A stretch of DNA of 64,000 nucleotides from Candidatus Lokiarchaeum ossiferum (GTDB lineage Archaea; Asgardarchaeota; Lokiarchaeia; Sigyniarchaeales; Promethearchaeaceae). A model generated the notes under the pieces. The model worked only from the letters and a program-made list of their open reading frames with translations. It was not told the origin of the DNA and did no database searches. Where the stretch lies: the NCBI GenBank assembly GCA_025839675.1, contig CP104013.1, forward strand, positions 2,977,121 through 3,041,120, written 5' to 3'. A program made the position numbers and the translations under genes. This document shows, one piece after another, positions 27,615 through 33,513 of the stretch (positions are counted from its first letter, which is position 1; every line of letters starts with the position of its first letter).

Positions 27615-27864
27615 TATAATCACTTAGAGCGCATCGCGACCTCACTGGGTGAGATTTATCGCACTCTACGAAGAAGTAAAGGTAGCATGGTAATAAAATT
27701 TTATCATCAAAAAGACGGATATTTGTGAGTTACGCGTATGGACAAATGTTTAACTTCTTAAGTAAAGAAGACCATAAAATAAATAAAGCAAGACTAAAAT
27801 GTAGTATATTATCGTGATATTATAGAGATAATATGATCAAATCAATCAAAAAGGGAAAATAATA

Positions 27865-28539
27865 ATGAAAGTCAGATTTACAGCCGATAAAAATGGAATT
27901 GAGATCGAAATAGAGGATAATGATAATAATCAAGAATATTTGGAAAAAATCCTTAATCAAATTGATCAAATCGTAGATTCTAAATATAATTTGCTCGAAG
28001 TCTTAAGAAAGGAGCCTATTTTGGAAAAAAGCACAAGCAATGAAGGGGAAAATAAGGTAATAAAAGAAATCATAAATACTAATTCAAATACTAATCAGAC
28101 TGAAAATATTGATACGATAGCTGAGTCTATTGATCAACCCATTAAAGATTTCGCAGCTCAAGTTAAGGTAGATCCATTGAAACTAAGCCAAATCTATGAT
28201 TTTGGTTATAGCAAATACACAAAAGGAGAGATGGAAGTTCCTCCTATTCTTCCAGATGTATGTTCCGTTTCAAAATCACGTTCAGATACTCAAAGACAGG
28301 CACTATTACTATTGTTACTTGCTACAAATGTGTTAAATGGGAATGATTCGTTAAGTTCAAAATCATTAACAATGATCTTAACTGAATCATCAATAGATTC
28401 AACTGATTTATCAAAAGTAAAATCCACAGATTTTAATAAATGGATTAAAATAGATGGTAGATCCTATAGAATTTTTCCAGTTGGGGTGATAAAAGCAAAG
28501 AAATTCTTGAATGAAAAAATTGCATCATTAGGTGAGTAA
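27865..28539 (+). CDS. Hypothetical protein (element cargo)
   Basis: The ATG ORF is 224 aa and overlaps the next gene by 8 nt. It is N/K/S-rich with no recognisable domain. Confidence 0.4.
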   Translation: MKVRFTADKNGIEIEIEDNDNNQEYLEKILNQIDQIVDSKYNLLEVLRKEPILEKSTSNEGENKVIKEIINTNSNTNQTENIDTIAESIDQPIKDFAAQVKVDPLKLSQIYDFGYSKYTKGEMEVPPILPDVCSVSKSRSDTQRQALLLLLLATNVLNGNDSLSSKSLTMILTESSIDSTDLSKVKSTDFNKWIKIDGRSYRIFPVGVIKAKKFLNEKIASLGE

Positions 28540-29299
28540 TATCTCTAAGTTTCAAGATTTATTATCAAAACATATACCAAAGAAATATTCTGAACCAATA
28601 ATTGACGAATATGCTAATCTTGAAAAGGCTTTTTATGTTTTCGATGCTGTAAACTTAGGAATAGCAGCAGGTCATTTATGTGAATTAATTTCATCATTAA
28701 TATGTTTTAAAGAACTAAATATTGTGCAAAACTTGAATAGAATTGATTTTAATCCAAATTATCAAAAAATGATACAAGCCCCAAAACCAAATTCTGATGC
28801 TGAAATTCTCATGAATATTATTCCAAATATATTAAAGGGAATTTATGCATTCAGAAGTAGAAAAAGAGTAGCACATTTTAAACTAGCTATTCCACAAAAA
28901 ATCGATATTAAGACAGTAAAACAAAATATAGATTGGGTCATATCACATCTGTTAATGTTATATTGTAATGTTCAAGATCCTTCTTCAATGATGATTCTAA
29001 AACCATTTGCAGAGATTGATATTCCATTTGTTGAGGAATTTGAGAATGGTGAAATATTATTCCTAAAAAGAGATGTAAGCAAACCAGATAAATTACTTTA
29101 TGTTATTGGAAGAAATCGTGATAAAATTCGCATTACAAAAGAAGAAATTATTATTCAGGTTCCAGAGCTAAAGAAAGATTTTGCACAAAATATACGAAGA
29201 TTGAAGGAAAGGACATTAATCCATATTACTGATAGTGGTTTTACTTTAACAAGAATAGGTAAGCAAAAGCTTTCTACTATCTATGAAAAATTATCTTAA
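28532..29299 (+). CDS. Hypothetical protein with R-x4-H motif (possible HEPN-like/Abi-like)
   Basis: GIYAFRSRKRVAHFKL matches the HEPN Rx4-6H motif in a predicted helical context. It is translationally coupled to the upstream ORF. Confidence 0.35.
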   Translation: MSNISKFQDLLSKHIPKKYSEPIIDEYANLEKAFYVFDAVNLGIAAGHLCELISSLICFKELNIVQNLNRIDFNPNYQKMIQAPKPNSDAEILMNIIPNILKGIYAFRSRKRVAHFKLAIPQKIDIKTVKQNIDWVISHLLMLYCNVQDPSSMMILKPFAEIDIPFVEEFENGEILFLKRDVSKPDKLLYVIGRNRDKIRITKEEIIIQVPELKKDFAQNIRRLKERTLIHITDSGFTLTRIGKQKLSTIYEKLS

Positions 29300-29520
29300 G
29301 TTTTCTGAATTTTTTGACTATCCCATTTTTTAAAATTTCGGTCAAGTTCCTCATTAAAAGTGGTGGAAGGATATTTGATAAATTGCATCTCGCCTCCCAC
29401 CCTGACCCAATACTGATTGTTTGCTTGATTCATACTGTATTTCAGGAAAAACAAAATAAAAAAACTACCGCGGGTGAGAATATATAAAAAATTCTTAAAT
29501 TGATGATCTAATTTATTATT

Positions 29521-29928
29521 ATGTCAGATACAGTGCCAATACTTGCAATAATTTTTTCATTTCTATCTACTTTAATACTTTTCCTTTCAAACTACCTTAG
29601 GGAAACTAAGTTTAAGCAAACTTCTAAAATATATCAAATGAAACTTGACTTTTATTTAGAATTAATGGAAGAAATTACTTCAATAATATATCTCGGTTGT
29701 AATATAAAACAAAATATAAATAAATTATACCAAAAAGCTTTGATTTTATCTTCTGATCAGGTAATCAGGGAATATAATTCATTACTTTCAAGATTGGATG
29801 AAACAAAATGGGAAATGAAAGAAAATAGTGATATAAAATTAGCACAAAAACTTTTAATTGAATATAGAAAAGATTTAGGATTAAAAACAGCTTTATCCTC
29901 CTATGAAATAAAAAAACCATTCAATTAA
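29521..29928 (+). CDS. Hypothetical small membrane protein
   Basis: The N-terminal TM helix is ILAIIFSFLSTLILFL and the rest is helical and lysine-rich. Confidence 0.3.
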   Translation: MSDTVPILAIIFSFLSTLILFLSNYLRETKFKQTSKIYQMKLDFYLELMEEITSIIYLGCNIKQNINKLYQKALILSSDQVIREYNSLLSRLDETKWEMKENSDIKLAQKLLIEYRKDLGLKTALSSYEIKKPFN

Positions 29929-31857: not shown

Positions 31858-32321
31858 TCAATTAGCCCCCATTTTTTACTTTTAGGCTTAAATTCAATCC
31901 CTTTGCAATTTGAAAGAATATTATTAATCATTTCACTATCTACATCTAATAATTCACGCAATTTTGTTCTCGATTGATCACCAAATATTTCTAAAGTCTT
32001 AAGAACTTGTTTTTCATAGTCCGTGGTAGGGATATTGGACATGTTTTTCTTCATTTCCTGCATCATTTCCCCTAGCATCATACGCATGTTGATTTCCATA
32101 TCATCTATCTTTTGATCCACTTTTTCGATTTCATTTACAAGGGATTCCTGCTTGGTGGTTGTTTGCTGTTCCCCATACACTAATTTGTTCATAGTATTTC
32201 GAACAATTTTAGATAAAGGGATGTTGGATTTAGTCGCATAGTCTTTCCATGCAATTAAATCTTTAGGCGATACACGAATGGTATATTTTTCCTTTTTTTC
32301 TTGATGAACTAATTTCGGCAT
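31854..32321 (-). CDS. Ribbon-helix-helix/CopG-like putative regulator (excisionase-like position)
   Basis: The N-terminal KYTIRVSPKDLIAWKDYATKSNIPLSKIVRNTMNKLV is RHH-like. Its 4-nt overlap with the integrase-like gene start suggests an operon. Confidence 0.4.
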   Translation of the reverse strand: MPKLVHQEKKEKYTIRVSPKDLIAWKDYATKSNIPLSKIVRNTMNKLVYGEQQTTTKQESLVNEIEKVDQKIDDMEINMRMMLGEMMQEMKKNMSNIPTTDYEKQVLKTLEIFGDQSRTKLRELLDVDSEMINNILSNCKGIEFKPKSKKWGLIE

Positions 32322-32685
32322 TGTATCCTCAAACAGTAATTACCTGCAAAAGTATATAAAAGTATGGACAAATCATATCAATTGACCATACGTTTGATCT
32401 TGTTAATAAAATTTTATGAAAAAAAAAAAAATGGATGTTGGTTAATTGGGTTAAATTTGGTTTCAAACGATATTAATCATGAACCGGATATATACAGTAG
32501 GGAGTTATGATGTACCGACGGTATAGGTTGGTTTGATAATAATTATTGCTTCGATTCGACATGACTATGACAACTCATTGTATTATGTAATACATAATAT
32601 TTTTTGTATTACAGTAAATAATAGGAAATTCAAATATATAAAGTAACACATAAATTTTTTCTGTATTACCTTCGTTTATTATATT

Positions 32686-33363
32686 ATGGGAGGAAAGCCC
32701 AATCAAAAAACTCCATCGAAAGTATTTACAATTCGAATCGATGAACTGACTCTCGCCGAATTAGAAATGATCAAGAATATTCAATCGGTGAAATCTACGG
32801 GCAAGTTAATTAAGCAAGCAATAAATACATATATTGCAATGAATCCCTATAATCCTGAAAGACCAAATCCAAAGCTTATTATGAGCTATAATATTTTTAA
32901 GCCTCTTATGGATCTTGCTTCAGATGACGTTTTACGAGAGATGGCCCAAATTTCGTATGACAATGGGGTTTCCGATACAAAAAATATCCAACAAGAGTTA
33001 TTACGATCTGGATTGAAATATGAACATACATTTAAAGACGAAGTGGAACAGGTGATTCATGTTTTAGATTTTGTTCTAAAACCCCAAGGGCAAAATTGGT
33101 TTTACAATGCATCTTACCAGCTAAAAAACGATCAATTTTTTATCAAAGGAGAGCACGCCTTAGGAAAAAATTTTTCTATTTTCATTAAATATCTCCTTCA
33201 AAACTATCTCAAGGAGGCAAATATGGAACTAATTCAGGAAGACTATAGTGAAATTCAAAGAATCCAGAAAAACATTAAAGGAATTCCCACAAATACTATA
33301 ATTAATGGGGTAAGTTTTTTTTTCCAGCAAAAAACGACTCAAAATGCAGAACCTATAGAATAG
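32686..33363 (+). CDS. Hypothetical protein with N-terminal RHH-like segment
   Basis: The RHH-like segment is VFTIRIDELTLAELEMIKNIQSVKSTGKLIKQAINTYIA. A near-perfect 19-bp palindrome lies about 90 nt upstream. Confidence 0.35.
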   Translation: MGGKPNQKTPSKVFTIRIDELTLAELEMIKNIQSVKSTGKLIKQAINTYIAMNPYNPERPNPKLIMSYNIFKPLMDLASDDVLREMAQISYDNGVSDTKNIQQELLRSGLKYEHTFKDEVEQVIHVLDFVLKPQGQNWFYNASYQLKNDQFFIKGEHALGKNFSIFIKYLLQNYLKEANMELIQEDYSEIQRIQKNIKGIPTNTIINGVSFFFQQKTTQNAEPIE

Positions 33364-33513
33364 ACTAGAACTTTTATATTCGTTTTAAAAATTTTTATTT
33401 TTAGCAAAATCTTGAATTCCTATGTGAGCAATGCTCATTTTCAGATCCTTTATGTGGGAAGTATCATTGTACTAAATAACTAACTGGTATAGAAGGGAAG
33501 GGAATTGAAAAAA

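Follow-up and report, generated by a model that had tools for sequence, protein, structure and literature searches.

The analysed stretch, referred to here as the window, comprises 64 kb of the 6.04 Mb chromosome of Candidatus Lokiarchaeum ossiferum strain B35. Ten short open reading frames (ORFs), on both strands, are located in it between the gene for ribosomal protein uL2 (UYP46240.1; 26895–27614, minus strand) and a Fer4-nitroreductase gene (NEF87_002535; 33514–34410, plus strand); the genes annotated there are NEF87_002526–002534. The only tRNA found in the window, tRNA-Lys(CTT), is at 26756–26830, and a scan with Rfam returned no RNA other than this tRNA. A preliminary description, made from the DNA letters alone, had proposed that the block from 27650 to 33400, between uL2/tRNA-Lys and a metabolic gene, is an integrated element; the cluster of ORFs is present as it described. 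Inside this block lies a B35-specific insert (27705–32403), which contains 4,699 bp of unique DNA, or 4,713 bp when one copy of a flanking repeat is included, and which is absent between uL2 and the nitroreductase of strain B36. Its boundaries are set by a perfect 14-bp direct repeat, TAATAAAATTTTAT. The limits first proposed are therefore to be replaced by 27705–32403 plus one 14-bp repeat copy, with the right boundary at 32403/32417.

Strain B36 is the second cultured strain (CP163304, 6.27 Mb, average nucleotide identity to B35 of 97.2%), and mobilome differences between the two strains are reported in general terms in the preprint that describes it (bioRxiv 10.64898/2026.02.13.705702). Exact-sequence cluster look-ups gave B36 counterparts for uL2 (XEO77763), the nitroreductase (XEO77765) and the next gene, an epimerase (XEO77766). 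In B36, the starts of uL2 and the nitroreductase are only 368 bp apart and the two genes are adjacent, i.e. the site is empty, while none of the 90% clusters of the eight insert proteins looked up (8/8) has a B36 member. When the B36 locus sequence (L019) is compared with the window by blastn, four stretches align: L019 9902–10860 with window 27713–26755 (99.2% identity), 9812–9927 with 32517–32401 (92%), 9762–9806 with 33313–33269 (93%) and 4981–9732 with 38154–33415 (93%). The first two overlap, and L019 9902–9927 matches two stretches of B35, 27688–27713 and 32401–32426. The junction in B36 reads GCATGA-TAATAAAATTTTAT-GAAAAAAAA; in B35, the left junction reads GCATGG-TAATAAAATTTTAT-CATCAAAAAG and the right one ATCTTGT-TAATAAAATTTTAT-GAAAAAAAA. 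The 14-bp repeat is thus present once in B36 and twice in B35, at the same position, the two copies that flank the insert corresponding to a single attachment site (attB) in B36. The flanks themselves diverge unequally from B36, with 99.2% identity on the uL2/tRNA side (26755–27713) and 93.1% on the nitroreductase side (33415–38154), against 97.2% genome-wide, which suggests recombination or faster change to the right of the site.

The last ORF of the block encodes a 225-amino-acid (aa) ribbon-helix-helix (RHH)-like protein (32686–33363, plus strand). The preliminary description had counted this gene as part of the element; it is located outside the insert, in flanking DNA shared with B36. The gene is intact in B35. 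B36 retains the intergenic DNA to its left (window 32401–32517) and a 45-nt piece of its 3' part, the latter inside a spurious 68-aa ORF (L019 9613–9819), and the gene has therefore been deleted by B36. Homologues with 37–45% identity occur in other Promethearchaeota, in one such genome in ordinary chromosomal contexts. The 225-aa gene is an ancestral host gene, largely deleted by B36, rather than cargo. A breakpoint at 32697/32698, seen in Logan contig L007 (identical to L015; SRR32148622_98), was considered as a strain boundary and rejected, as the Roadblock locus involved is normal in both B35 (2022 data) and B36. At position 2509/2511 of this contig, the region upstream of NEF87_001343 (Roadblock/LC7) is fused to the 225-aa gene at its codon 5, where a single base is untemplated and microhomology is lacking; the partner genes NEF87_001343/1342 (Roadblock, TFIIB) are about 1,200 genes away. 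The join is absent from other runs and from both reference genomes, and the contig is probably chimeric or derived from a rare rearrangement in a culture.

The 14-mer TAATAAAATTTTAT occurs exactly twice in the window, once at each junction, and a blind repeat search had flagged the same repeat (family D4). The left copy (27691–27704), taken as the core of attL, overlaps the presumed TATA box of uL2, 77–90 nt upstream of its start codon. The right copy, taken as the core of attR (32404–32417), is located 83 nt upstream of the start of a gene for a 155-aa protein. A direct-repeat search between 27.6–27.9 kb and 32.3–33.5 kb, as proposed in the preliminary description, thus succeeds. The core includes a 12-bp palindrome, ATAAAATTTTAT. 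The AT-rich box and the hairpin-forming leader of uL2 have similar counterparts in a related species (76% nucleotide identity), and we take the core to be the TATA box of uL2; a promoter and terminator scan was uninformative, its models being of bacterial type and the host archaeal. Duplication of the core means that the uL2 promoter, with its putative TATA box and its leader, survives the insertion intact. The leader (27615–27690, minus strand) folds into a hairpin of -20 kcal/mol (z = -1.9), its sequence being largely conserved at 76% overall identity, and may be an autoregulatory or processing element. The uL2 gene is solitary, away from the ribosomal-protein operons, in B35, in B36 and in a related metagenome-assembled genome.

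Inside the insert, a 12-mer, GTATGGACAAAT, is present on the plus strand at 27736–27747, 31 nt from attL, and at 32362–32373, 30 nt from attR. These are its only two occurrences in the window, at near-symmetric distances from both cores. Beside the right-hand copy, at 32382–32391, is an imperfect inverted copy, TTGACCATAC, the whole right-hand feature extending over 32362–32391 (plus strand). By their position, these arm motifs are candidate sites for DNA-binding proteins of the element. In a reconstructed attP, the junction of which is predicted as ...TTTGATCTTGT-TAATAAAATTTTAT-CATCAAAAAGACGG..., they would flank the core symmetrically, while the restored attB junction is predicted as ...GTAGCATGG-TAATAAAATTTTAT-GAAAAAAAAA.... 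Features of an insertion sequence or transposon were not found: the arms share no terminal inverted repeats at k >= 9, and the insert proteins have no transposase domain (Pfam, NCBIfam).

The base composition of the insert is foreign. Its GC content is 29.4%, compared to 36.0% elsewhere in the 64 kb, and no other 4.7-kb window is as low (0.294, against 0.362 +/- 0.018 for non-overlapping ones). At 28–31 kb the GC content drops to 0.26–0.29, and the insert's tetranucleotide distance is 3.1 standard deviations over the mean (z = 3.1). Lysine, in which the block proteins had been described as rich, is modestly enriched (9.7% versus 7.1% in 11 flanking proteins). The preliminary description had named conserved synteny, host-like composition and a lack of flanking repeats as what would speak against an integrated element; in all three respects the opposite was found, the block being absent from the closest genome, B36, foreign in composition and flanked by the 14-bp repeats.

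Next to attR, two genes on the minus strand form an operon that starts 83 nt from the core. The first (NEF87_002533; 31854–32321) encodes the 155-aa protein, an RHH-type DNA-binding protein (DUF6364, 7.6e-4; RelB antitoxin, 2.2e-3), of which the AlphaFold model is of low confidence (predicted local distance difference test score, pLDDT, of 58). It is a candidate regulator or recombination directionality factor. Its 3' end overlaps by 4 nt the start of the second gene (NEF87_002532; 31267–31857), which encodes a truncated tyrosine integrase of 196 aa (Phage_int_SAM_4, E 1.8e-7). The RHH-like proteins (of 155 and 225 aa) and the recombinase remnant noted in the preliminary description were thus recovered, the latter as the N-terminal half of a tyrosine integrase: only the N-terminal SAM-like, core-binding domain and a possible box-I (GFRIES) are left. 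In a library of 1.8 billion proteins, the 196-aa ORF has 23 relatives, mostly full-length tyrosine recombinases of 313–438 aa. They bear the motifs GxRxSE, ARKS, HxFR and SNH and the C-terminal catalytic tyrosine, and align to residues ~10–160 of the query only. A family hidden Markov model (HMM), built from 18 relatives, matches over model positions 6–148 of 336 only, with no further match in the six frames of 27600–32500; tblastn does not detect the catalytic part anywhere in the window, and when the remaining 202 residues are aligned to the integrase family with hhalign, the probability is 0.1%. Because none of the three methods finds a remnant, the catalytic domain is taken to be gone. The gene, with only the core-binding domain present, is therefore a remnant and not a functional member of the tyrosine-recombinase elements, and insertion by an integrase is deduced from the relatives and not from the B35 copy.

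Downstream of the integrase fragment, in the same frame, is a 107-aa ORF (NEF87_002531; 30811–31134, minus strand). The two are split by a single TAA and together make up 349 codons, which hints at a once-longer ORF, the C-terminal part of which would not be integrase-like. The 107-aa ORF was considered as a degenerate catalytic domain and rejected, as a MAFFT alignment shows faint colinearity only and neither HMMER nor hhalign lends support.

The closest full-length integrase (P0035, 42% identity, or 45% in the tblastn alignment) is encoded on L020, a contig (Logan ERR7338892_6350) of 10,325 bp and 25.6% GC; its 30-nt terminal overlap indicates that it is circular (~10.3 kb). The integrase gene is read on seven contigs. 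As in the window, its start is overlapped by the gene for a 156-aa protein, which is homologous to the 155-aa protein (BLASTP 7e-12) and has a weak C-terminal match to MarR-type winged helices. Both L020 and the B35 insert are very AT-rich and contain numerous small orphan ORFs; in both, repeated motifs are located upstream of the operon for regulator and integrase, those of L020 being of the type AAGTAAAGT. L020 differs in being extrachromosomal, in its intact integrase and in a 913-aa protein with a P-loop (GDGSKGKST), for which there is no database match; it also encodes several small RHH proteins, and none of the cargo genes of the window is present on it. It is an undescribed plasmid- or virus-like replicon, the host of which is presumably Lokiarchaeum-like.

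The truncated integrase and the location of tRNA-Lys, 0.9 kb from the left end of the insert, would fit an integration of the type of the Sulfolobus spindle-shaped virus (SSV) into this tRNA, in which the 196-aa ORF would be Int(N) and Int(C) would be found near the tRNA. This arrangement is refuted by the position of attR, which is upstream of the regulator-integrase operon and not within the integrase gene, and by the lack of a catalytic-domain remnant in any frame of 27600–32500 or in the rest of the window. Furthermore, uL2 and its conserved leader stand between the element and the tRNA. A split integrase gene as the attachment site was accordingly rejected as a candidate. A match to the 3' half of tRNA-Lys at about 32.50 kb had been noted in the preliminary description and judged too weak for an attachment site. 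It scores 8, while the best scores of shuffled blocks average 10.8, which bears out that judgement and puts the match at chance level; as it sits in host DNA shared with B36, it is not an attachment site, and the presumed target is the core in the uL2 promoter instead of the tRNA.

An origin of the polymorphism by loss, in which ancestral host DNA, and not a mobile element, was deleted in B36 between two chance 14-bp AT-rich repeats, has in its favour that the adjacent 225-aa gene has indeed been cut to a 45-nt remnant in that strain, and that the polarity of the change is read without an outgroup. We consider it very unlikely, since the composition of the insert is foreign, the integrase fragment and regulator are located beside one of the repeats just as they are paired on the circular relative, and the symmetric arm motifs are hard to attribute to chance. 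The insert proteins, moreover, are near-orphans: nine have no match in phage and plasmid collections, and two have one homologue each, both on one metagenome contig.

Taken together, presence in one of two close relatives, direct repeats that correspond to a single site in the other, foreign composition and the homology of the recombination module make it highly probable that a small plasmid-like, integrative element, of which the block is the defective remnant, entered the 14-bp core in the uL2 promoter in a lambda-like manner and then decayed. In the proposed history, a circular ancestor would have carried an attP with the core TAATAAAATTTTAT, matching the palindromic TATA-box region upstream of uL2 that served as attB. 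The tyrosine integrase of the element would have recombined the two cores, as that of phage lambda does, to produce attL and attR, perhaps with the assistance of proteins that occupied the GTATGGACAAAT arm motifs some 30 nt away on either side. The attR copy of the core could act as promoter of the regulator-integrase operon. The catalytic domain of the integrase, and any replication gene, would have been lost later, after which the element would stay fixed in B35 unless an integrase were provided in trans by a relative.

Several observations weigh against this history. The core is only 14 bp long and consists of A and T only, in an AT-rich genome. The catalytic R..K..HxxR..H/W..Y domain of a tyrosine recombinase is absent from the B35 copy. 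An outgroup that would tell whether B35 gained the insert or the B36 lineage excised it precisely was not found: the sequence of the only other relative, a 2.2-kb contig, breaks off 209 bp upstream of uL2, and a scan of GTDB genomes with uL2 returned just this contig and an unrelated nanoarchaeon. A circular form is seen for the relative L020 only, neither an excised form of the B35 element nor a second integrated copy having been observed. Lastly, domain, PHROG, PADLOC, NCBIfam, phage and plasmid searches revealed no gene for replication, capsid or conjugation in the insert, so that the term plasmid-like is taken from L020 only.

The searches of known gene content were negative for each class of element. 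Virus hallmark genes for capsid or packaging have no significant match in PHROG or Pfam, replication initiator and partition genes none in Pfam, NCBIfam or PLSDB. With PADLOC no match is significant, the best (E 0.003–0.013) being to winged-helix, specificity-subunit and candidate-system (HEC-08) models. The insert proteins have no match in IMG/VR, JGI metagenomes, GenBank phages or PLSDB plasmids, and the comparison with virus and plasmid databases that the preliminary description had recommended thus yielded nothing. As no virus hallmark, plasmid replication or known defence gene is present, its specific labels 'provirus' and 'defence island' are not supported.

The element might still be mobile as a non-autonomous, satellite-like unit if it were served in trans by a full-length integrase of its family, whether from another locus of B35 or from an infecting plasmid or virus. 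Neither 14-bp core has a mismatch, the two arm 12-mers do not differ, the ORF of the regulator is unbroken and full-length integrases of the family exist, while the long open frame that continues past the single TAA suggests that inactivation is recent. However, neither a circular junction nor a second copy of the element was seen, and the window contains no other integrase of the family. The breaks of the low-coverage contigs L004 (at 27653) and L001/L002 (at 31027, 31147 and 32319) lie off the att cores and are put down to low coverage. Continued mobility is, on balance, improbable.

The remaining genes of the insert are its cargo, to which the searches assigned no function. At the left end, a two-gene operon on the plus strand encodes a 224-aa protein (NEF87_002526; 27865–28539) and, overlapping it, a 255-aa protein (NEF87_002527; 28532–29299). 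For the 224-aa protein, no family match was obtained in the profile libraries scanned. A search of 5.8 billion proteins returned only one homologue of the 255-aa protein (P0002, 55% identity). It is encoded on a 1.4-kb metagenome contig (L008), where the ORF upstream of P0002 is 52% identical to the C-terminal 146 aa of the 224-aa protein. As the two homologues are adjacent on L008, the 224/255-aa pair is a conserved two-gene unit. In the 255-aa protein, an R-x6-H motif (RSRKRVAH), kept in both known sequences of the family, is located in an N-terminal region predicted to be helical, and three independent weak matches at the C-terminus (CggR_N, 0.016; WH_III-A, 0.0029; ScaR, 0.47) point to a probable winged helix. 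The AlphaFold2 model is poor (pLDDT 51) and a Foldseek search of it against the PDB was uninformative.

Further to the right follow a 135-aa membrane protein with a hydrophobic N-terminal segment (NEF87_002528; 29521–29928, plus strand) and, on the minus strand, a 109-aa protein (NEF87_002529; 30022–30351), which is the zinc-ribbon protein noted earlier, with a CPKC...CHNC motif and a coiled-coil tail (Zn_ribbon_6, 0.0025). A 72-aa ORF (30412–30630, minus strand) is called as a gene in public assemblies; a 67-aa ORF (30630–30833, minus strand) is not and is doubtful. An exact 19-nt direct repeat, AATTCCTTGATCTTTCGGT, is present within the insert at 30089–30107 and 30862–30880, the only repeated 19-mer of the window outside paralogous genes (0.1 expected by chance). 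Its copies, the flanks of which are unrelated, bracket 754 bp with a GC content of 0.25, which contain the 72- and 67-aa ORFs as well as the part of the zinc-ribbon gene that encodes the N-terminus, and may be the footprint of an internal rearrangement or a nested insertion.

The cargo may also bear on why the element has been retained. The 224/255-aa operon might be a toxin-antitoxin or defence system, with the 255-aa protein as a HEPN-like RNase (R-x6-H) fused to a winged helix; retention through such useful or addictive cargo is compatible with a decayed integrative element. The two genes overlap and stay paired on L008, the winged-helix matches, although weak, fit such a protein, and the R-x6-H motif is kept in its helical context, albeit by the only two members of the family. 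By itself, however, this motif is weak evidence. The 255-aa protein matches none of the HEPN, toxin or defence profiles, its structure model is unreliable, and Foldseek returned nothing of use. Of the six systems found in PADLOC-based surveys of B35, none is described at the uL2-insert locus in the available part of the preprint (bioRxiv 10.64898/2026.02.13.705702). A role of this kind is therefore doubtful, if marginally less so than continued mobility. Bolder still would be a general scheme, in which the regulator-integrase family is directed to palindromic TATA-box cores of host promoters and reuses the core as a promoter of its own, rewiring transcription of host and element alike, and in which, separately, the orphan 224/255-aa operon represents an addiction or defence module of a new, HEPN-like sort; we hold this for a long shot, about as improbable as mobilisation in trans. 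Were it true, such a module would account for the survival of the remnant in B35 beyond the decay of its integrase.

Outside the insert, the similarity between B36 and B35 ends exactly at the 3' end of tRNA-Lys (window 26755/26756), where in B36 an island follows (L019 10860–20720). Its genes encode a 440-aa integrase (phrog_1, 8.8e-11), a TGT/DpdA-like tRNA-guanine transglycosylase, a NADAR protein, a DUF5131/radical-SAM-like protein and an RNase_T exonuclease. Judged from the protein numbers, the island extends over about 68 genes, from a GNAT gene (XEO77694) to uL2 (XEO77763). It looks like a large element integrated at tRNA-Lys, distinct from the B36 provirus Fylgjavirus 1, and the uL2/tRNA-Lys neighbourhood is a hotspot of change. 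On the other side, two tandem VTT-domain (DedA-like) genes with 73% DNA identity (window 37350–38971) correspond to one gene in B36 (L019 4982–5788), either by tandem duplication in B35 or by recombinational loss in B36. Farther away, a 1496-aa ORF (8340–12830) contains long internal DNA repeats, with exact 18–29-nt matches spaced 609, 348 and 1566 bp apart, and the 4.7-kb window from 8001 is the strongest tetranucleotide outlier of the 64 kb.

L. ossiferum is among the very few Asgard archaea in culture, and we know of no genetic tools for it. The locus provides a defined natural attB in its chromosome, together with the att architecture of the element that used it, and a precisely mapped difference between B35 and B36; the circular 10.3-kb relative with its intact integrase is a concrete basis from which an integrative vector could be developed.

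Among archaea, Asgard genomes included, integrative elements that use tyrosine recombinases are a well-known class. In those of the 'pNOB8-type', which resemble phage lambda, the integrase gene remains whole after integration. The B35 insert shares with this type a short identical core duplicated as attL and attR, an integrase operon next to the attachment site, a gene for a small DNA-binding protein beside the integrase, repeated arm motifs, foreign composition and absence from a sister strain. It differs in that the B35 copy lacks a catalytic domain as well as replication or virion genes, in its core of only 14 bp, and in its target, the palindromic TATA region of a promoter rather than a tRNA gene. 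Work in Genome Res (2024, PMC11529989) and Nat Microbiol (2022, PMC8813620) reportedly describes integrated and mobile elements in complete Asgard genomes, and the insert, like these and like Fylgjavirus 1, is a strain-variable integrated element in an Asgard chromosome. A description of the uL2-insert locus was not found in the texts consulted. Fylgjavirus 1, the provirus of L. ossiferum B36, is integrated outside tRNA genes (bioRxiv 10.64898/2026.02.13.705702), as is the B35 element. The latter is far smaller, has no capsid or packaging genes and occupies another locus in another strain. In biological terms, the B35 insert belongs to a familiar kind of element and is in a state of decay.

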